DNA of 64,000 nucleotides from Candidatus Thorarchaeota archaeon (GTDB lineage: Archaea; Asgardarchaeota; Thorarchaeia; Thorarchaeales; Thorarchaeaceae): assembly GCA_048882045.1 (NCBI GenBank), contig JBHLRZ010000009.1, forward strand, positions 32,384 to 96,383, read 5' to 3'. Positions 5,241 to 35,814 of this stretch are shown here, one piece after another. A model generated the notes under the pieces. The model saw only the letters and a list, made by a program, of their open reading frames with translations. It had not been told where the DNA came from and did not search any database. Each line of letters opens with the position of its first letter. Positions within the stretch are counted from its first letter, which is position 1. The position numbers and the translations under genes were made by a program.

Positions 5241-5795
5241 CTATGAAGTACCACGTGCTGGATATGTCATAGTGATCTTGAATGAACAACAGCTGTCACC
5301 AGAGGACATACACGTATCCTCAATGACAATCAATTTCTCATACTCAATCCTATTGAAATCTGTAAGGTATTCCAAAACAGCTTCTACAAATCCTTTGAGA
5401 AAGAAACAAGAGGGCTCGTCGGCTTCATATCCAGAAGCATAAGGATTGTCGCCAATTTCGATAATTGCTTCCTCATCCAACCAGAGTTTGTAGAGTTTCG
5501 CGATTTTTACATCACCAAAAGGAACGATGAGAGTTTCTAGTGCCATTTTAATGAACTCTACAATACCCTTGAAATCTCCCGGGGGATTCTGTTTTCCAAC
5601 CTTGAAATACTCTCTCTGAGCTTCCAGACCAGCAAGACGACCAGCAGAATAATACAAGTCACGCAGTTGATCTGGGAACATCACTGCGATTCTGCTTCCA
5701 AGCTTATTCCAAGTCTTCGCAAAGAATGCAACCATCAAGTCACGTTCCTTCAGCCGACCTTTCCACCATGGAATCACGTTTTCGGAGTCTGACAT
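5241..5795 (-). CDS. V4R-domain protein
   Basis: YYSAGRLAG, PSCFFLKGFVEAV, EDTCMSSGDSCCSF (V4R Cys pattern). Confidence 0.8.
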   Translation of the reverse strand: MSDSENVIPWWKGRLKERDLMVAFFAKTWNKLGSRIAVMFPDQLRDLYYSAGRLAGLEAQREYFKVGKQNPPGDFKGIVEFIKMALETLIVPFGDVKIAKLYKLWLDEEAIIEIGDNPYASGYEADEPSCFFLKGFVEAVLEYLTDFNRIEYEKLIVIEDTCMSSGDSCCSFKITMTYPARGTS

Positions 5796-5863
5796 ATCAC
5801 TGGCCTCGTTATCACTAACGTTGGAAAATTAGAATTAAAGTGCTTTATGTGTGTGTGATACGC

Positions 5864-6346
5864 TTACACAAGACGAACGTTCCAAACACAAGAGTCGGAC
5901 CCTGTAGCCTTGCTCATTTCTTGGAAAACTTTGGCATTTACACCCTTGAACTCTAGTATTGATTCAAGCACACCACTGAAAATCTCACAGTAGCCAAACC
6001 CTCGCATTCCTTCAAGGTTGACCTCTTGACACCAGACACAGTTGTCATCTGAGATACGGACTGACCCACGTGCACTCTTCATGTCGACATCACGGGGTTT
6101 CTTGTCATATAGTACTTTGTAGACGGTTTCAAGGAGCTTTGCAACATCTTCACGAGTAGTGACGTTTTCTTTAGTCTTCTCTACAATCTCAGTATTGAGG
6201 TAGACTTGCTGACCAATTTCCCGCCCTATTTCGCGAAGCCGCTCATTTGCATCCTCAATGCTTTCAGTTTCAGCAAGAGTCTTTTCAACATAGTATGAAT
6301 ACAAACTGATTAGTAATGGGTTCTCAATCTTTGGCATAGCATTCAA
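5864..6346 (-). CDS. TRAPP Bet3-family / V4R-fold protein
   Basis: ANERLREIGREIGQQV helix; CVWC...YCEIFSGVLESIL...SCVW. Confidence 0.72.
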   Translation of the reverse strand: MNAMPKIENPLLISLYSYYVEKTLAETESIEDANERLREIGREIGQQVYLNTEIVEKTKENVTTREDVAKLLETVYKVLYDKKPRDVDMKSARGSVRISDDNCVWCQEVNLEGMRGFGYCEIFSGVLESILEFKGVNAKVFQEMSKATGSDSCVWNVRLV

Positions 6347-6360
6347 TCCTCTTTTCTGTA

Positions 6361-7383
6361 TTAGATTGTCTTACCTATCACCTTGAGACCGTGCTTTCGA
6401 TACTTAGCTACTATCTGAATAACCTTCGGAAGTGGAAGTTTCAAAGCTTCAGCAATCTGTTCTGTTGTTCGACTACCATCACACATATTGATTATACTCT
6501 GATCACCTGATGCAACCTTGGATATGTCACCCTCAAATCGTGGACATTTGACATAACGACCCATCGTACTAGGAGCGGCAGCTACGCTCTCATCACCCGC
6601 CTCAATCTGAGGTACATCGATGATACCCTTTGATGCGCCCCACTTGAGCAATTCGATAACCCGATTGTTTGGCTGAAACATCGAGTCTGCAATCTGTTCA
6701 ACACTATTGTTCCCATCAACAAGCATGAGAACGTCAAATCCAAAGTTACGGTACTGGGTCTTCATCTCTTTGTAGAGTGACGAGTCCAAAGAGAGTGCAT
6801 TAGCATATTCGGAGCCTCTTGTTGGAACTGTTCCAGGCTGTACATTGAAATCATCTGGTGACAGCTCTGGTTTAATTTCATCAGCAGGAGCTTCTACAAC
6901 AGGAGTTTCAACTACGGGAGTTGGAGTTTCTATTGGGGGTTCTAGTGGGATTTCAGGAGGAACTGTTTCAACAGATGCTGCCTGAATCGCAATACTTTCC
7001 AAAACCTGAAGATTTGATTCACTGGACTCCTCGAAATCCTCTGGTGGTGGTGGGAGCTCTATACCTTCAAGAAGACGTAGAACATTCTTGGTCTTGGCAA
7101 TTGCAAGACCAAGCTGTAGTTCTGGCACATAGAGTACAGTGAGAATCCAGTTATCATCGACAGGAGAGAGGACGACTAGTCCACGGTCTGTGTCAATGGT
7201 CATAAGGCGTAGATCGGATTTGTACAGGGCTATACTATCTTTGACCCTTGGAAATAGTTCGTCAGGAAAAGCAAAACTAACGAAAGGCCTTCCGACCTTT
7301 GTCATTAGTGAATAACCTAAAACTTGGTCATCAAATCTCAGTTTTGAAAGAGCTCGCTCCAAATCCTTGGACATCAATAACAC
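6361..7383 (-). CDS. Roadblock/LC7-like domain + Pro/Glu linker + two winged-helix repeats
   Basis: N-terminal VLGYSLMTKVGRP...LQLGLA; repeats LVDGNNSVEQIA and MCDGSRTTEQIA; clear paralog of 9204-10256. Confidence 0.65.
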   Translation of the reverse strand: MLLMSKDLERALSKLRFDDQVLGYSLMTKVGRPFVSFAFPDELFPRVKDSIALYKSDLRLMTIDTDRGLVVLSPVDDNWILTVLYVPELQLGLAIAKTKNVLRLLEGIELPPPPEDFEESSESNLQVLESIAIQAASVETVPPEIPLEPPIETPTPVVETPVVEAPADEIKPELSPDDFNVQPGTVPTRGSEYANALSLDSSLYKEMKTQYRNFGFDVLMLVDGNNSVEQIADSMFQPNNRVIELLKWGASKGIIDVPQIEAGDESVAAAPSTMGRYVKCPRFEGDISKVASGDQSIINMCDGSRTTEQIAEALKLPLPKVIQIVAKYRKHGLKVIGKTI

Positions 7384-7528
7384 CTCACGGACCTTGGTCT
7401 GACCTTAGCCTGCCTGTCAATTCCTCTTTTCGAAAGGCGTCGTAAAAGGATTGTGGTGATAATATAATTTTCTGAGTTACGTCGGTCAATAACGGTTAAG
7501 AGGGATAGAGTGCGTCAACAGGAACAGA

Positions 7529-8086
7529 ATGAAGAACTTACTGAGTAGCATCATGGCTGTTGTCGTAGGCTCTACACTAATAGTGTGGCTCACGAACCTT
7601 ACGCAACCAACATATCCTGAACCTTTCGACGTGATATGGATGCTTCTCATAGGAAGTAGTACACTTCAATCCACGTTGTCTTTCATCACAGATGTGAACA
7701 ACGTACTAGCGTTTCTTGCATCATGGATTGTGATCGGCGTAATCATTGGACCTTTCTCTAAGTTCGGTTGGAATACAGTTCGGTCAGTGTTATGGGTTGG
7801 ATTCATTCACGCTATTCTGTCGTTGGCATCACTTCTTCTGTTGAATCCTGCGTTCTGGGAAATGTCATCTAGAAACTTCGAACTCTTGTATCAGTTTGCC
7901 ACCTCAATGATTGTGGCGTTACTCGCACTACCTTCTGCCCTCCTTTCAGCTCTGTTGATTAAACGAATTCGAACACAGACAGATCCTCCTATCCCAGTGA
8001 AGATCGAAACTATATGTGAGTGCGGAGCTGTATTCAAATCTAGACCAATGCTCTGTTCAGAATGTGGGCGGAAACTGTCTGATTAG
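7529..8086 (+). CDS. Multi-pass membrane protein with C-terminal Zn ribbon
   Basis: 4-5 hydrophobic segments; CECG...CSECG. Confidence 0.7.
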   Translation: MKNLLSSIMAVVVGSTLIVWLTNLTQPTYPEPFDVIWMLLIGSSTLQSTLSFITDVNNVLAFLASWIVIGVIIGPFSKFGWNTVRSVLWVGFIHAILSLASLLLLNPAFWEMSSRNFELLYQFATSMIVALLALPSALLSALLIKRIRTQTDPPIPVKIETICECGAVFKSRPMLCSECGRKLSD

Positions 8087-8610
8087 CGATCTCGGGAGAT
8101 TCCGCCTCCAAGGAAGCCGCCAATCGCACATGCAATGGCAGGATAGATCGTTCCCTCTAGTGCAGCTTGCATTATATACATAGACCCAGGCTCAAAGATA
8201 GCCATGAGATTGAATGAGGGGGATATCATAAAGAACAACAACCAGGTAAGAAATGCACCTATGACAGCGCCGATGATGGCAGCCATAATCCCGGGAAGGA
8301 AGTCCTTTGAGGCTAGGCCAGCGAGAAGACCACCAGTGCCCCAAGCCAGCCACATGAGTCCACTGGCATACTCAGCACCATAACCAACAAGCGCTCCAAG
8401 GCTTGGAGTGCCAAGAAAACCTGGGGAGGGGTACAGAACTGTTCCGACAACTGCTAACCTTAGCTCGAGGTCATTGTTGATCAAAAAGTCATCAACAACA
8501 AGTGCGGATATCAGATCGTTGGGGACGAGAGCCCCAAATGTAAGTACTATGAATGTTATTGCGAAAGCTGTTATCAGCCCTATTAGCGTGCCTAGACCTT
8601 GACCCAACAT
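8083..8610 (-). CDS. Gly-rich multi-pass membrane protein
   Basis: About 4 TM segments; GGAGGA Shine-Dalgarno upstream of the TTG start. Confidence 0.7.
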   Translation of the reverse strand: MLGQGLGTLIGLITAFAITFIVLTFGALVPNDLISALVVDDFLINNDLELRLAVVGTVLYPSPGFLGTPSLGALVGYGAEYASGLMWLAWGTGGLLAGLASKDFLPGIMAAIIGAVIGAFLTWLLFFMISPSFNLMAIFEPGSMYIMQAALEGTIYPAIACAIGGFLGGGISRDR

Positions 8611-8683: not shown

Positions 8684-9187
8684 CTACAGAAGAGTCAGGG
8701 TCCAAGTGCAGGCTTCATCGCCAAGTGCTTTACATGACTCCTGGTAACTTTCTGCTTGGAATCCTCGAAGCTTCATCACTGCATCGAATACTCCACTCAC
8801 GATGACACAGTATTGCAGTCCAGGCATGTCTGTGATTAGAACTCCTGCACATATTGGACAGTCTGCATCAGTGAACTTGATAGTTTTCCGGTCCTCGCTT
8901 ATCCATATATTAGTAAATTCCTGGCCAGAGTTCACTTTATACGCAAGCTGGAGTGTCTTAGCAAACTCGTGGAATGCCCCTGCATGCTGACTGATTCTGT
9001 CTGCATAATCCATGAGCAGAGTTTCTCCAACTCGAAAACCAATATCCTTCATCTTGAAATTGATCATGTTAACGGAGTCACTGGTGCTCATCAACAGGTT
9101 CATCAGTTCTCTGTAGCTGGCTTGGAATAGAACCTTACTTACTTTCGGGGTCATGGCAGTCCAAGCAATTTTCCCTTTGATTCCCAT
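8684..9187 (-). CDS. TRAPPC3/Bet3-like protein (start revised to ATG 9187)
   Basis: GGAGG Shine-Dalgarno before ATG 9187; LFQASYRELM...INFKMKDIGFRVGETLLMDY resembles the Bet3 N-terminal helices; CPIC, YC, SC...AC. Confidence 0.78.
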   Translation of the reverse strand: MGIKGKIAWTAMTPKVSKVLFQASYRELMNLLMSTSDSVNMINFKMKDIGFRVGETLLMDYADRISQHAGAFHEFAKTLQLAYKVNSGQEFTNIWISEDRKTIKFTDADCPICAGVLITDMPGLQYCVIVSGVFDAVMKLRGFQAESYQESCKALGDEACTWTLTLL

Positions 9188-9203
9188 TGTTATTCCTCCA
9201 AAC

Positions 9204-10256
9204 TCAGTATCTTGATTCTTTGTCAGTACGTATGATTTTGAGAGTTTTCCCTCGATAGGGAAGTATGGTTTGCAACGCTTCGAAATAGGGTATGCCAACC
9301 TCAGTCGCAATCTCCTGTAATGTACGTTTTCCATTACAGAGTTCGATAACAGCTCTATGCTGTTTCTTGACCTTGTCAATTTTGCCTTGAAACAGTGGCA
9401 ACTCGATTATCTCCTTCTGGGAAGGTTCCTGAACTTCAGGACATTCAACAGATACAATATCGCGTGAAACACACCAAGAAACAATCGCAATGATTTTATC
9501 TACAGGACGAGATAGATGTTCAGCAATCCTATAGACAGTCCTTTTCTCATCTACTAAAAGAAGGACGTCAATACCGACATTCGAAAATTCCTTCTTTATT
9601 CGAGTATTCAAGTTTGTGTCAAGAGACATTGTTTCGCTGTACCTTCCAGCTCTAAAGACAACACAGCCATGTTGGACAACAACTTCCTTTTCTTCGTCCT
9701 TAACTTCCTCAACTGGTTCAAGAGTAGGTTCTGGTTGCGGTTCTTCGACTGCTTCGGGTACTTCAACCATTGGGACAAGCTCCGACTCTTCAGCCGATGA
9801 TGCTTGATGCGTTTCTGCTGGGTTTTCAAATACGGCTTCCATTGAGATAGGTTCAGGAAAAGATGCTTCAACATCTTCTTCGAATCTTGGTGGGGGAGGA
9901 AGGTCTACTTGGACTAGCAAGTCAACGACTGCTTTGGTTCGTGATAATGCACCTCCAAGTTGGAAGTCGGGTTCAAAGAGCACAGCAAGGACCCATAATG
10001 GGTTCACTCTCGCGAGAATAACGATTCCTTTGTCAGTCATTATATTAACTAGTTTCAAATCAGAACCGTGTATCTTCAAGGTTCCTTTGATCTGAGGGAG
10101 AACTGCATCAGGCAAAGAAAATGACAAGAAAGGATGTCCGTCAGCAGTTATGAGGGCGTATCCATTTACTGACTCATCGAATTTCAATTTAGTCAGGACA
10201 CGCTCTAGCTGCAATTCATACACCTTATCAAACGATGCAAGTATTAGTAAAACCAC
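9204..10256 (-). CDS. Roadblock/LC7-like domain + Pro/Glu linker + two winged-helix repeats (true start may lie ~40 nt downstream)
   Basis: LERVLTKLKFDESVNGYALITADGHP; LVDEKRTVYRIA and LCNGKRTLQEIA; paralog of 6361-7383. Confidence 0.65.
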   Translation of the reverse strand: MVLLILASFDKVYELQLERVLTKLKFDESVNGYALITADGHPFLSFSLPDAVLPQIKGTLKIHGSDLKLVNIMTDKGIVILARVNPLWVLAVLFEPDFQLGGALSRTKAVVDLLVQVDLPPPPRFEEDVEASFPEPISMEAVFENPAETHQASSAEESELVPMVEVPEAVEEPQPEPTLEPVEEVKDEEKEVVVQHGCVVFRAGRYSETMSLDTNLNTRIKKEFSNVGIDVLLLVDEKRTVYRIAEHLSRPVDKIIAIVSWCVSRDIVSVECPEVQEPSQKEIIELPLFQGKIDKVKKQHRAVIELCNGKRTLQEIATEVGIPYFEALQTILPYRGKTLKIIRTDKESRY

Positions 10257-28974: not shown

Positions 28975-28998
28975 ATTATGCGAAGAGAGAGATTTGAT
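28975..28998 (+). repeat. Degenerate copy of the tRNA-Leu 3'-end repeat (R6)
   Basis: attatgcgaagagagagatttgat; 18/24 identical to atggtgcggagggcgagatttgaa. Confidence 0.55.
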
Positions 28999-30482: not shown

Positions 30483-30506
30483 ATGATGCTGAGGGTGAGG
30501 GTCCAG
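30483..30506 (+). repeat. Degenerate copy of the tRNA-Leu 3'-end repeat (R5)
   Basis: atgatgctgagggtgagggtccag; 14 of the first 17 bases match; abuts the stop codon at 30507. Confidence 0.55.
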
Positions 30507-31049: not shown

Positions 31050-31074
31050 ATGGTGCTGAGGGCGAGATTTGAAC
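31050..31074 (+). repeat. tRNA-Leu 3'-end repeat (R4)
   Basis: atggtgctgagggcgagatttgaac; one mismatch to 35696-35720. Confidence 0.95.
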
Positions 31075-31086
31075 AGAAGTCAGGAC

Positions 31087-32088
31087 TTAGACAGATGATT
31101 TGACATTATCTATTGAGTTCCATAGAGTTTCAGGTGAAATAAGTTCAATGTTTCCACTGTGTATCATGTTCTGAAGTTTCTGCATCAGGAGAGAGTTCAC
31201 AGGTGTAGCTAAACCGTATATTTCTCCTAAACTCACAATTTCACCAGTCAAGAATTCTTCTTCACTTGAAGAACCACGGAGTAATGATTGGTATGTAGAG
31301 GAGATAAAGTCAAGGCTATCTCTTTCTTGCTTCATCCAGGGTTCAAATGAAGCATCATTACTAAGAACTGTCATCAACTGGTCAAGAACTCGATAGTTCG
31401 GTTCAATCCCGGATTTTTTGACCACATTTCGACCTTCATCCCAGGTAGCAACGAGAATTTGTCTCAAGTGTTTATTCTTCAAACTTTTTGGAAATCCAGA
31501 CCCTGTGAGGGCAAGAGGCAAATTCATGAGATTCAGAACTAATTTTGCCCAGAGATCACTCTCAATATTAGTGGAAATATCGGTCGGTATTCCGGAGGAC
31601 ATGTAGTCACAGAGTCTCTTTATCCGCTCTGTTTCCGTTCCATCCAATTCCCCAATTATGCAATTGCCCTTGCGAGTGTATTCTATCTCTCCTGGTTCTA
31701 GATAACTTGCAGTAAATCGAACGACACCAGGAATCACTCTCATTGTTCCAATAACCTCTGATATTAACGTGGGATTCCTGATTCCATTCTGTAATGAAAC
31801 AACTGGAGTTGACTTTCCAAGATGAGGCGAGAATTCTTCGACTGCTAGTGTTGTGTCTTGAGTCTTGACTGTGAGAAAAACAACATCAGCTCCATCAACA
31901 CAGGATGAATCTGTTGTCGCATTGATTCTAATTGTGAAGTCTTCAAGCCCTTTAACCTTTAGACCATGTTCTCGAATCATGTCAACATGGTTTTGCCGCG
32001 CAACAAGAACAACATCATGACCTGCTCTATGAAGAGTAGCACCCAGAATACTTCCTATGGCTCCAGCTCCATACACCACAGCTTTCAC
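31087..32088 (-). CDS. panE: Ketopantoate reductase family protein (cassette 4)
   Basis: VYGAGAIG, LTVKT, SLQNGI, WAKLVLN, SSTYQSL, EFLTGEIV. Confidence 0.82.
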   Translation of the reverse strand: MKAVVYGAGAIGSILGATLHRAGHDVVLVARQNHVDMIREHGLKVKGLEDFTIRINATTDSSCVDGADVVFLTVKTQDTTLAVEEFSPHLGKSTPVVSLQNGIRNPTLISEVIGTMRVIPGVVRFTASYLEPGEIEYTRKGNCIIGELDGTETERIKRLCDYMSSGIPTDISTNIESDLWAKLVLNLMNLPLALTGSGFPKSLKNKHLRQILVATWDEGRNVVKKSGIEPNYRVLDQLMTVLSNDASFEPWMKQERDSLDFISSTYQSLLRGSSSEEEFLTGEIVSLGEIYGLATPVNSLLMQKLQNMIHSGNIELISPETLWNSIDNVKSSV

Positions 32089-32179: not shown

Positions 32180-32203
32180 ATGGTGCGGAGGGCGAGATTT
32201 GAA
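32180..32203 (+). repeat. tRNA-Leu 3'-end repeat (R3)
   Basis: Exact atggtgcggagggcgagatttgaa. Confidence 0.97.
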
Positions 32204-32211
32204 TTCAAATC

Positions 32212-34710
32212 CTAAGTATCTTCAAGCAGACCATCAAGTAGTTCTTGGATTTCTTGTTCCCTGTTCGTTAGTTCTTGTTGTATGATTTTCTCCTTTCTCT
32301 TTTTCAGCTTTCGATGAGAATATGTGAAAGATGGCACCAAGAGGGCAAGAATCGACACTGCTGTAATGGGTATTGGACTGTGAATAAACATCTCCATCAC
32401 TGGAACATTGGCGTCATTTGGATCAAAGCCATTTGCTAGTTCCCACGTATCACTAAATCCATCGCTATCTCCATCAGCTGAATTTGGATCTGTATTGTTC
32501 CGATACTCCTCAAGATTGGTTAGTCCATCATCATCGTAATCTTGCGCGGAGTCATCAACTAGCGGATTCGTTCCCCTTTCGACTTCCCAAGAATCAGGCA
32601 TGAGGTCCCCATCCGAATCAGAAGACCCTGGATTAGTACCGTGAATATACTCCTGAAGGTTAGTGAGGTCATCACCATCCAGATCATTCATGGAATCATC
32701 CTCCAGTGGATTTAGCCCGTAGAAGACCTCCCAAGCGTCTGGAATCGTGTCGGAATCACTGTCAGAAGAATGCGGTGACGTTCCGTAAAGATACTCATCA
32801 AGATTGGCGAGTGTGTCATCGTCCGGGTCTTCTGCAGCATCATTACGCAATGGATCCAAAAGATTAAGAAACTCCCAATCATCAGTCATTGAATCCAAAT
32901 CGGAATCAACCGCAATCGGACTTGTGCCAATACGATACTCCTCAAGATTAGTCAGATTGTCATCATCTGAATCAAAGGAGGAGTCATCGAAGTCATCATT
33001 CAAACCATAGTAGCGTTCCCAGCTATCAGTCATCCGGTCATTGTCAAGGTCTGACATATCCTCGAGATTTATTATGAACACGTCGCCAGATTCAACAGTT
33101 GACATATTGAAGAACGTTGTTGCTGGAAAATCAACACTCTTGGTGTGCCCTGCCGCCAGAATGGTCCCTGAGTTACTCGGTCGAACACAACAAATGTCAT
33201 CACTCATTGTTCCTCCAATGTAAGAGGACAAGCGAATCTCATTTACGATATAATCTAGAACGAACAAGAATCCATCAGAAGACTCACAGGTACTATCAAA
33301 TGGACAAGTTAGGGGAAAATCCAAGGAATTGGTAGAACCCCCTACACAGATATTATCAGAACTGTCGACAAAGAAGCTTTTTCCTTCTTCCTTGCCACTT
33401 CCGCCAAAGAACTCGGAATAAACTAGTTCGTAATGAAATTCGGGGGGATTAGCATCTTTCCGAATGACGAAGAACTTGGTTGATTTGGCATCCACATGAT
33501 TAAGGCCCGAAGTAGTGCGTGGAAAGTCTGGTGATTCTGTCCTACCAGTAAGGAAGATATTCATCTCCTGATCGACAAAAACATCCAAACCACTATCAGC
33601 GAGCTCTCCACCAAGATAATCAGAGTAGAAGAGCTCCTGACCATTCTCATGCAGTTGACACACAAAGCAGTCTGAAAGGCCATTGAGTTCTCCTTCAGGA
33701 GGCTCTCCTTCTTGCACTACACATGGAAAATCATCTGAAAAAGTGTATCCTGTCACCGTTGCACGACTGTTTCGAACAGACATGGAAACGATGCAATCGA
33801 TATTACTCCCACCAAGAAACGTCGAGTATTCGACTCCTGTAAGTGTTGAATCGAACTTGATGATGAATCCATCAGATACTCCACCATATGTCATATCATA
33901 ACCATCTTTTATGGGGAATATTGGGGATTCGGTCCACCCTGCAACATACACAGATCCTTCTTCATCAATATCAACTGATTCAGCCCAATCTGACCGATTA
34001 CCACCGAATTTGAAAGAAAACACCAGAAGACCTGTTGTGGAATCAATCCCTAGAACAAAGCAATCCCAACCTTCTCTATCCCAATCTTCCCCTACTAGAA
34101 CAGAGTTCCCTGGTCCACCCAAAGATGGGAAGTACCATGACTTTGTTATACCTGTGATAATGATAATCCCAGTAAGATCGATGGCGACGGATACGGCAAT
34201 ATCCTCTTCCTCGCCACCAATGTAGGTTGAGTATAGAAGATCGTTTCCGTCTGAATTGAAAATAGCTATGAAGCAATCTGTATCCCCTCCAGCATGTTCA
34301 TACTGAATTGGATTTTGAAGAGGAAGATTGCGGGAATTTGTAGAACCAACGATAACAATACGTCCGTCTGAAAGCAGGACCATGTCTGCAATCCGCTCCC
34401 AGCTAGAGCCTCCGTAGATTGTTGATGATTGAATTGGATTGAAAAGATCAATCTCCTCCAGCGATTCGCCTGATGGTTTCATATTTCCGTGAAAAGATCT
34501 TTGCAGTGGGATTGTTGAGTTGTCTGCAGGAATGGTAGTGATTGAATCAATTTCCAAAGGGAGGAAGGGAGAGAGAAATAGCATCATGAATACTATGCAG
34601 AACACCACCACAGAAAGCCCCCATCTGCGTCTCAATATGACTACTATCCTTCTACAGACACCTTTCCGCATATATGTTGGGTCTACGATATCAATAACTT
34701 TGCGGTGCAC
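32212..34710 (-). CDS. Surface protein with SBBP-type beta-propeller repeats, acidic TSP3-like Ca-binding repeats and a TM anchor (cassette 3)
   Basis: YSTYIGG/YSTFLGG...G.T.S.DFP repeats; D.D.D.LTNL.EY and DSD.D.M.D.WE repeats; hydrophobic segments near both termini. Confidence 0.85.
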   Translation of the reverse strand: MHRKVIDIVDPTYMRKGVCRRIVVILRRRWGLSVVVFCIVFMMLFLSPFLPLEIDSITTIPADNSTIPLQRSFHGNMKPSGESLEEIDLFNPIQSSTIYGGSSWERIADMVLLSDGRIVIVGSTNSRNLPLQNPIQYEHAGGDTDCFIAIFNSDGNDLLYSTYIGGEEEDIAVSVAIDLTGIIIITGITKSWYFPSLGGPGNSVLVGEDWDREGWDCFVLGIDSTTGLLVFSFKFGGNRSDWAESVDIDEEGSVYVAGWTESPIFPIKDGYDMTYGGVSDGFIIKFDSTLTGVEYSTFLGGSNIDCIVSMSVRNSRATVTGYTFSDDFPCVVQEGEPPEGELNGLSDCFVCQLHENGQELFYSDYLGGELADSGLDVFVDQEMNIFLTGRTESPDFPRTTSGLNHVDAKSTKFFVIRKDANPPEFHYELVYSEFFGGSGKEEGKSFFVDSSDNICVGGSTNSLDFPLTCPFDSTCESSDGFLFVLDYIVNEIRLSSYIGGTMSDDICCVRPSNSGTILAAGHTKSVDFPATTFFNMSTVESGDVFIINLEDMSDLDNDRMTDSWERYYGLNDDFDDSSFDSDDDNLTNLEEYRIGTSPIAVDSDLDSMTDDWEFLNLLDPLRNDAAEDPDDDTLANLDEYLYGTSPHSSDSDSDTIPDAWEVFYGLNPLEDDSMNDLDGDDLTNLQEYIHGTNPGSSDSDGDLMPDSWEVERGTNPLVDDSAQDYDDDGLTNLEEYRNNTDPNSADGDSDGFSDTWELANGFDPNDANVPVMEMFIHSPIPITAVSILALLVPSFTYSHRKLKKRKEKIIQQELTNREQEIQELLDGLLEDT

Positions 34711-34749: not shown

Positions 34750-34773
34750 ATGGTGCGGAGGGCGAGATTTGAA
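34750..34773 (+). repeat. tRNA-Leu 3'-end repeat (R2)
   Basis: Exact atggtgcggagggcgagatttgaa. Confidence 0.97.
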
Positions 34774-34843: not shown

Positions 34844-35218
34844 ATGTCCATACAATCAAAATTGGAGGCTCTCTCCTACATCTGTTTTGCAGGTATGATA
34901 ATTGGTTTTATAATGACTGTGGGCTATTCCCTGTTTATATGGTATCTATTCACAATGGCAATGCTTGCAGTATTTTCCATAGTTTTGATAGTCACTATAT
35001 ATTTTGGACTTAGAGATCATTCATTAGAAACACGAAAGATGCCTTGGTGGAGTAACATTGGAGTATTCATAATGGGTCTTGGAATATTCCTCTATACATT
35101 CCCCGAAATTGGAATCATATCTACTCTTACAGGCGTGATTGTTGTTTTATATGGAATATTCTACAAGGAAAACAGAAATTATGAGAAGATTAACTATGGT
35201 GCGGAGGGCGAGATTTGA
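34844..35218 (+). CDS. Small 4-TM membrane protein (cassette 2); ends inside repeat R1
   Basis: Hydrophobic; C-terminal GAEGEI and the TGA stop are encoded by the repeat. Confidence 0.7.
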   Translation: MSIQSKLEALSYICFAGMIIGFIMTVGYSLFIWYLFTMAMLAVFSIVLIVTIYFGLRDHSLETRKMPWWSNIGVFIMGLGIFLYTFPEIGIISTLTGVIVVLYGIFYKENRNYEKINYGAEGEI

Positions 35219-35219
35219 A
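35196..35219 (+). repeat. tRNA-Leu 3'-end repeat (R1)
   Basis: Exact atggtgcggagggcgagatttgaa. Confidence 0.97.
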
Positions 35220-35292
35220 AATAGCAGTAATCATTGAATAACAGTGCTTATCTGGGTCTTGAAGAAATGGAGTAAATAGTGGAGGGTGCTGA

Positions 35293-35718
35293 TTGAAAGG
35301 TAACAATCAGGAGTCCAACAAGGAACTTTCGACAGAATTAGTAGCTCTCTTTGAATTGTATATAAGCATATTACTACTTCTCATGGTATCAGCAATCAAT
35401 ATCAGAACTAGCGAGCTAAGGGATCTAACTATTCTTGTATCTGGCTTGTTTTTTGTTTTCTTGATATATTTTGGATACAAAGTAATACTAAGTGAAACTC
35501 CTGTATGGTCAGTGAATGCAAAGAGATTGTATGGGATTGGTTCTACTCTATTTCTTATAGGTGGTTCAATTGGTTTTAGCTCGACAAATTTCGAAGTAGG
35601 AGTTCTCATGATACTTGTGGGATTGATCTTGATTCTAATTGCCACTCTTCATCCAGATGCCCGAATCAGGAAGACTAGAACTATCAGAGAAGAAGATGGT
35701 GCGGAGGGCGAGATTTGA
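35293..35718 (+). CDS. Small 4-TM membrane protein (cassette 1); ends antisense within the tRNA 3' end
   Basis: GGAGG upstream; hydrophobic; ends GAEGEI-stop. Confidence 0.7.
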   Translation: MKGNNQESNKELSTELVALFELYISILLLLMVSAINIRTSELRDLTILVSGLFFVFLIYFGYKVILSETPVWSVNAKRLYGIGSTLFLIGGSIGFSSTNFEVGVLMILVGLILILIATLHPDARIRKTRTIREEDGAEGEI

Positions 35719-35814
35719 ACTCGCGAACTCCTACGAGATTCCCCCTTCATGATGAACTATCACGAAGACAGGGATCTGAACCCTGCGCCTTTAACCTGGC
35801 TTGGCAACCTCCGC
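35697..35814 (-). tRNA. tRNA-Leu(CAG), CCA encoded, with a ~30-nt non-canonical intron (about 35739-35768)
   Basis: Acceptor stem GCGGAGG/CCTCCGC-A-CCA; anticodon arm CAGGG-TTCAGAT-CCCTG; variable arm CTC-GTAG-GAG; T arm GCGAG-TTCAAAT-CTCGC. Confidence 0.93.

Follow-up and report, generated by a model that had tools for sequence, protein, structure and literature searches.

Genes facing a tRNA-Leu end in Thorarchaeota can take their stop codon from the T-loop

Two small membrane protein genes in an array of gene modules behind a tRNA-Leu(CAG) gene of Candidatus Thorarchaeota end inside a repeat that copies the tRNA 3' end. The T-loop, read antisense, probably acts as a fixed back-stop that lets the genes facing it lose their own stop codon, the peptide tail being a by-product. 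This borrowing of a stop is non-random: own stop codons are given up almost only where the T-loop TGA is available. The proposal of the first-pass annotation that both genes are modules bounded by copies of the tRNA end, with a stop codon taken from the repeat, holds for this array and likewise for homologs in other species and in another genus.

The tRNA-Leu(CAG) array and its modules

The window, that is, the whole stretch of 64,000 nucleotides that we analyzed, carries the tRNA-Leu(CAG) gene anchoring the array at 35697..35814 (minus strand). This gene scores 48.5 bits with Rfam RF00005 and is detected by ARAGORN only when introns are allowed. It encodes its CCA and contains an insert in the variable-arm region (35739-35768, in the anticodon stem/variable arm interval), the sequence of which varies among the tRNA-Leu genes of relatives. 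The repeat is the reverse complement of the final 23 nt of the tRNA, from the T-loop through CCA. Exact copies start at 35697 (the tRNA itself), 35197, 34751, and 32181, all on the minus strand. The displaced copy at 35197..35219 (23/23, T-loop to CCA) gives the stop codon of ORF1 and bounds the 500-bp ORF2 module, and the copy at 34751..34773 (23/23) forms the distal boundary of the 446-bp ORF1 module. Farther away, a copy at 32181..32203 (23/23) closes the module of an SBBP/TSP3-repeat protein (gene 32212-34710, minus strand), and another at 31051..31073 (22/23, minus strand) closes that of a ketopantoate-reductase-like (panE-like) gene (31087-32088, minus strand). A decayed copy at 28976..28998 (17/23, minus strand) is the probable far boundary; it adjoins a CxxCxxCC gene, the module of which changes place among the arrays of relatives. 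A candidate copy at 30484 was rejected, its 15/23 match being at chance level and no better than the strand control. The tandem units span 0.45-2.6 kb and hold mostly one gene each, in both orientations. The SBBP/TSP3 gene, carried alone as one module, encodes an 832-aa protein with a beta-propeller (SBBP), TSP3 calcium-binding repeats, and, C-terminally, a hydrophobic segment; the repeat at 32181 runs on into a short palindrome (32196-32211) composed of T-loop sequence and its inverse.

ORF1 (34844..35218, plus strand) encodes a 124-aa protein with four transmembrane segments and takes its six last codons and TGA from the displaced tRNA 3' copy. ORF2 (35293..35718, plus strand) encodes a 141-aa four-helix membrane protein from a TTG start preceded by a conserved GGAGGG motif, and takes its six last codons and TGA from the antisense strand of the tRNA. 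Each overlaps its repeat by 22 nt, and both TGA codons are the complement of T-loop bases 55-57 (TCA). Sequence and coordinates bear out the earlier description on two points: both ORFs enter the repeat in the same frame and end GAEGEI-TGA, and ORF2 overlaps the genuine tRNA 3' end antisense, ORF1 a displaced copy. The structural model of ORF2 (mean pLDDT 79) has helices H14-37, 40-66, 74-94, and 100-119, and the tail (residues 128-141, pLDDT <50) is predicted to be disordered. Homologs are 48-55% identical for ORF1 and 71-80% for ORF2. Pairwise dN/dS values, calculated without the tails, are 0.38-0.56 and 0.28-0.50, respectively; judged by this range of 0.28-0.56, the two ORFs behave like real genes.

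The family to which they belong is small, with 13 representatives including one spurious member, P0014, whose match was due to the repeat. Compared as a pair alone by BLASTP, ORF1 and ORF2 show no significant similarity (E 0.17). Profile-profile comparison with the tails removed gave a probability of 93% (E 3.5e-7, 101 columns, with IYFG, ET, and W aligned), a type of score that hydrophobic profiles push up. The suspected distant paralogy of these two proteins of about four transmembrane segments, based on a loosely shared IYFG...ET...WS pattern, is on this comparison likely, not certain. Neither ORF had a Pfam match above the cut-off or a PHROG match, all Atlas feature matches were below 0.9, and a PDB fold search returned nothing at E≤0.001. 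A promoter scan with a sigma-70 model, which is unsuited to archaea, stayed at chance level.

The contigs bearing the repeat and the ORF homologs belong to Candidatus Thorarchaeota, and the repeat is present in multiple copies throughout the genus. The arrays of relatives consist mostly of single genes between repeat copies, with the same genes in differing order. The ORF2 modules of four lineages can be aligned over their full length, from one repeat to the next, and their neighbors are unrelated. On the gene side their homology stops at the TGA, the following base being A, G, C, or T. In one relative (L203), the order of the ORF2 module and the panE-like module is reversed. ORF1 relatives occupy other tRNA-Leu loci. 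Modules also carry conserved noncoding DNA upstream, and some contain several genes. Among 124 displaced copies, base 54 is conserved at 60% against 93-99% for the following bases, and position 57 holds either A or G. In 96 of these 124 fragments, homology begins at position 54/55, so that the stop codon occupies the first conserved bases of the boundary. Base 54 moves together with the module's far end (20/24 versus 31/75 pairs), and base 57 segregates both ways. After the CCA comes a trailer with about 85-90% pyrimidine over its first bases. The first gene after the repeat is antisense in 110 cases and sense in 73, that is, about 40% lie in the opposite orientation.

Several further loci are of note in this context. 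The array behind tRNA-Thr(CGT) of the same genome contains a perfect tRNA-Leu 3' copy (L280:7202-7224, G000 C19). It precedes cupin and GNAT genes, which relatives carry as modules in their tRNA-Leu arrays; mixing between the arrays of different tRNAs can occur. The tRNA-Leu anchoring an array that contains ORF2 has as its neighbor a 553-aa protein (L205:3844-5505) bearing a Cas12f1/TnpB-like zinc domain. In L046 (G023:C61), near-identical genes for a probable single-strand DNA-binding protein (7520-8092 and 8883-9476) lie on both sides of the distal cupin module, which suggests that module exchange duplicated a resident gene.

Reading frame and peptide tail of the facing genes

We examined 381 distinct copies of tRNA-Leu ends for facing genes that end inside the repeat or at most 120 nt before it. 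At copies with an intact TCA, 22 genes in frame A end on the T-loop stop and 33 on their own stop, whereas one read-through was counted against 43 own stops in frame B and one against 31 in frame C. Entry into the repeat therefore amounts to 22/55 in frame A and 2/76 in frames B and C together (Fisher p=3e-8 by site, a test in which kin among the counted genes are not independent). By protein family, the counts are 8/23 versus 2/51 (p=0.004). A separately fetched metagenome set gave 8/13 versus 1/34 by site (p=0.001), a difference that is not significant by family (p=0.13). Ahead of the repeat, all three frames are open to a similar degree once real genes are subtracted; the bias is thus not a compositional artefact. 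Most facing genes end 0-60 nt ahead of the repeat, and there is one sharp peak at -22. Apparent entries of at least 80 codons in frames B or C mostly look spurious, being without a homolog in the set, and two of them overlap real genes. At tRNA-Leu copies with G57, frame-A entry was found in 0/35 cases versus 16/187, a difference that is only suggestive (p=0.058).

The first-pass annotation held that completion of the ORFs depends on the recombination site, and looked to homologs stopping ahead of the repeat as evidence to the contrary. Such homologs exist, though only in part of the family. P0008, 54% identical to ORF1, has its own stop 0 nt before the repeat, and the tail is absent from 9 of the 10 more distant ORF2 relatives listed (P0009-P0019, the spurious P0014 omitted); all five close ORF2 homologs retain it. 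Members with own and with borrowed stops are mixed in five of the eight borrowing families, including GNAT and Lrp/AsnC-like proteins. Together with P0008, this speaks against the proposed dependence. By sequence logic alone, exchange within two identical 22-bp copies leaves both ORF1 and ORF2 whole, but gene integrity after exchange is a tolerated consequence and not a requirement. The GAEGEI ending, proposed as a signature of cassettes, proved not to be a clean one, as it also occurs on Lrp/AsnC-like genes directly behind tRNA-Leu. Genes showing no sign of module status borrow a stop too, as these Lrp-like genes do at tRNA-Leu and an MFS gene does at tRNA-Ala of the window's own genome, which ends GGPGEI and next to which no displaced fragment was found. 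Other tRNAs of this genome carry similar tails. The endings observed at other tRNAs, GAPGGI, GGPGEI, GGPDEI, GGSGET, and GGAGRI, have the stop at the same position; it is the stop position that is shared, not the peptide.

These observations also bear on whether GAEGEI has a function of its own as a C-terminal tag involved in degradation, sorting, or interaction, or whether the 22-nt complement in the mRNA regulates tRNA-Leu or translation, either of which we consider quite improbable. Homologs with 48-80% identity retain the tail, as does every member of one family, of an approximately 220-aa protein, that invariably runs into the repeat. However, its sequence is dictated by the constraint on the tRNA and the repeat and is another one at other tRNAs, and it decays when the repeat does (P0003, P0018). 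Close homologs lack it, and GAEGEI-type tails occur on unrelated soluble proteins (GNAT, Lrp, and HNH). The best reading is that the six-residue tail is a by-product which the genes can do without, and not a functional tag, although it may have a function in some lineages, given the one family that always enters the repeat and the five close ORF2 homologs that keep the tail.

With the T-loop as a back-stop, the array is probably explained as follows. One-gene modules accumulate at the tRNA-Leu 3' end, each supplying a replacement tRNA tail from about T55 of the T-loop, followed by the pyrimidine-rich trailer, and the gene of the module often faces this tail. Read antisense, the trailer consists of stop-poor Glu, Lys, and Arg codons, which may explain the charged residues ahead of GAEGEI. 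T-loop bases 55-57 (TCA) are read as TGA at a fixed distance from the CCA end, 22 nt, which is exactly the point where modules cease to be homologous. A gene in frame A could lose its own stop almost free of cost, gaining a short, disordered, acidic tail that would be the same whatever neighbor lies beyond. In the other two frames, stop loss would lead to read-through into a variable neighbor or into the tRNA and would be purged. We infer both the neutrality of stop loss in frame A and this purging. Two amidohydrolase genes of this genome, facing G57 tRNAs that offer no T-loop stop, read 19 and 72 codons through tRNA-end copies, and such tolerated read-through weakens the claim that read-through is costly. 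The two genes are paralogs (L279:547-2019 and 5255-6892, G000 C12) in frame B, and the 72-codon case crosses an apparent tRNA gene antisense.

Candidate movers of the modules

The back-stop is compatible with a mover of the following kind. A multi-HTH endonuclease with tandem HNH motifs, itself encoded next to a tRNA end, could cut or nick the DNA of tRNA genes close to the T-loop, after which donor-templated repair could install a gene together with a replacement tail, involving neither circles nor an integrase and serving cargo modules in trans. We put this forward tentatively, as one possibility. Twelve of the 28 genomes of the genus have this family, frequently with several copies each; this genome has one. 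PHROG HNH matches of the family go down to E 4e-13. Thirteen of its 26 distinct C-termini fall within a tRNA 3' end or no more than about 20 nt away from one, at several tRNA species. All six entries into a tRNA end are in frame A, five of them stopping at the T-loop TGA, and these genes thus share the architecture of ORF1 and ORF2. Yet the ORF1/ORF2 array contains no nuclease gene, the family was not found in 16 of the 28 genomes searched, which are incomplete MAGs, and half of its copies do not abut a tRNA end; the tandem-HNH genes may themselves be cargo. As judged from sequence, the family is a candidate module mover. The copy in this genome (G000 C49:830-3601, L366) is a multi-HTH protein with two HNH-like motifs, and its gene stops 1 nt from a tRNA CCA; its relatives (L367-L396) adjoin the ends of Thr, Leu, Val, and Glu tRNAs. 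It is unlikely, if conceivable, that the whole amounts to an integrase-free equivalent of the integron in Thorarchaeota, in which tRNA-abutting tandem-HNH nucleases insert one-gene modules, each with a replacement tRNA tail, at the T-loop in trans and the antisense TGA has been recruited as an inbuilt stop, freeing genes from their position in the array.

The repeat might instead be the core of an att site used in trans by a tyrosine recombinase, with modules excised as circles and the stop in the core selected, as in integrons, to keep genes whole. The sharp boundary at the T-loop, where crossover sites of tRNA-targeting integrases are known to lie (PMC4383910), fits this explanation, as do the reordering of modules between genomes and the segregation of base 57 both ways, expected of an exchange region, with base 54 following the far end. 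It is nevertheless doubtful. Searches of the 93%-complete genome for tyrosine (PF00589), SSV-type (PF16795), and serine (PF00239) recombinases returned no match, nor was an integrase gene found within the array. Only 8 of 27 congeners have PF00589, and none of the 12 recombinase loci examined has an adjoining tRNA. An exact search of metagenome contigs for the circle junction of the ORF2 module found none, in assemblies of a kind that drop rare forms; no IMG/VR viral contig contained the repeat, and none of the small contigs that carry it in relatives is circular. Moreover, most facing genes retain their own stop. Four congeners share a conserved tyrosine recombinase of 375-393 aa with a C-terminal Cys cluster (L261:3459-4586, L262:9793-10920, L263:545-1672, and L259:10374-11555), which lies near a flavoprotein-reductase-like gene in three of the four and has no adjoining tRNA. 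It was not found in this genome (G000), weak tblastn matches to these loci being due to their other ORFs. Still less probable, indeed very unlikely, is a retro-origin, in which mature tRNA-Leu would anneal to a complementary mRNA 3' end and prime reverse transcription, yielding both the tail and modules with antisense genes. Facing genes do end very near the CCA, and their mRNA would bear a perfect primer-binding site. Opposed to this are the share of first genes in the opposite orientation, the conserved upstream noncoding DNA of the modules and the several genes in some of them, and the lack of a match to reverse transcriptase (PF00078) in the same 93%-complete genome. The retroviral copy of the tRNA primer is 18 nt long, which does not match the 22 nt observed here.

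The interest of the locus lies mostly in the array and its mover and less in the peptide tail. The borrowed stop is useful as a marker, as it fixes the module boundary at T-loop bases 54/55, and the frame bias is a measurable sign of selection on gene placement in arrays. C-termini of the form G-x-x-G/D-x-I/T offer a proteome-level handle for genes abutting tRNAs in Asgard genomes. The borrowed stop also ties the cargo modules, by architecture, to the candidate HNH mover. If this link is true, Asgard archaea would have a way of acquiring genes that island finders based on integrases overlook by design.

Comparison with known systems

In the literature that we covered, which is incomplete, we found no description of tRNA cassettes or of tRNA-supplied stops in Asgard archaea or Thorarchaeota. 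By itself, borrowing a stop is a minor genome economy with a direct precedent: some integron cassettes, such as dfrA30, have their stop codon in the inverse core site of attC (PMC3118321). The present locus resembles integron cassettes in its one-gene modules, its reorderable array, and the supply of a stop by the boundary repeat. Here, however, six codons come from the repeat as well, and the stop is the T-loop read antisense. The boundary is an exact 22-23 bp copy of a tRNA 3' end and not a folded attC with core, inverse core, and inner repeats, array genes lie in both orientations, and no IntI was found (neither PF00589 nor PF16795 matched in the 93%-complete genome). The locus works like a cassette array yet is not an integron, given its mixed orientation and the absence of attC and of a detectable integrase.

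Other systems share parts of this anatomy. In Mx8 and SSV, the gene spanning the att site is the integrase, which is split or altered by integration. These integrase genes extend across attP (PMC4383910), and the present genes likewise have coding sequence overlapping a tRNA-derived site. They are instead cargo genes without a Pfam match above the cut-off or a PHROG match, which end inside the repeat and whose C-terminus is unchanged with different neighbors. The architecture of gene-tail replacement by homing endonucleases, an endonuclease gene combined with a replacement 3' end of its target, has a candidate counterpart in the tandem-HNH family at other tRNA loci, one of them in this genome, and not in this array.

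Islands targeted to tRNAs, and tandem arrays of them, have displaced 3' fragments lying behind an intact tRNA (Islander, PMC4383910; Prochlorococcus tycheposon islands, bioRxiv 10.1101/2020.12.28.424599). The array shares with these the same orientation of the 3' fragments, their decay with distance, and the boundary at the T-loop. The Islander definition calls for an integrase and a length of 2 kb or more (PMC4383910); the ORF1 and ORF2 units measure 446 and 500 bp, hold one membrane-protein gene, and have no integrase. The additive flexible genomic islands of Alteromonas, as far as the relevant portion of their description goes, are variable sets of cassettes that follow a tRNA and are marked by partial repeats of it (PMC4898812). 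That portion describes no use of the repeat as a stop. The variable cassette sets and partial tRNA repeats behind tRNA-Leu(CAG) correspond to such an additive island as portrayed there, here in an archaeal host and with modules that mostly carry a single gene.
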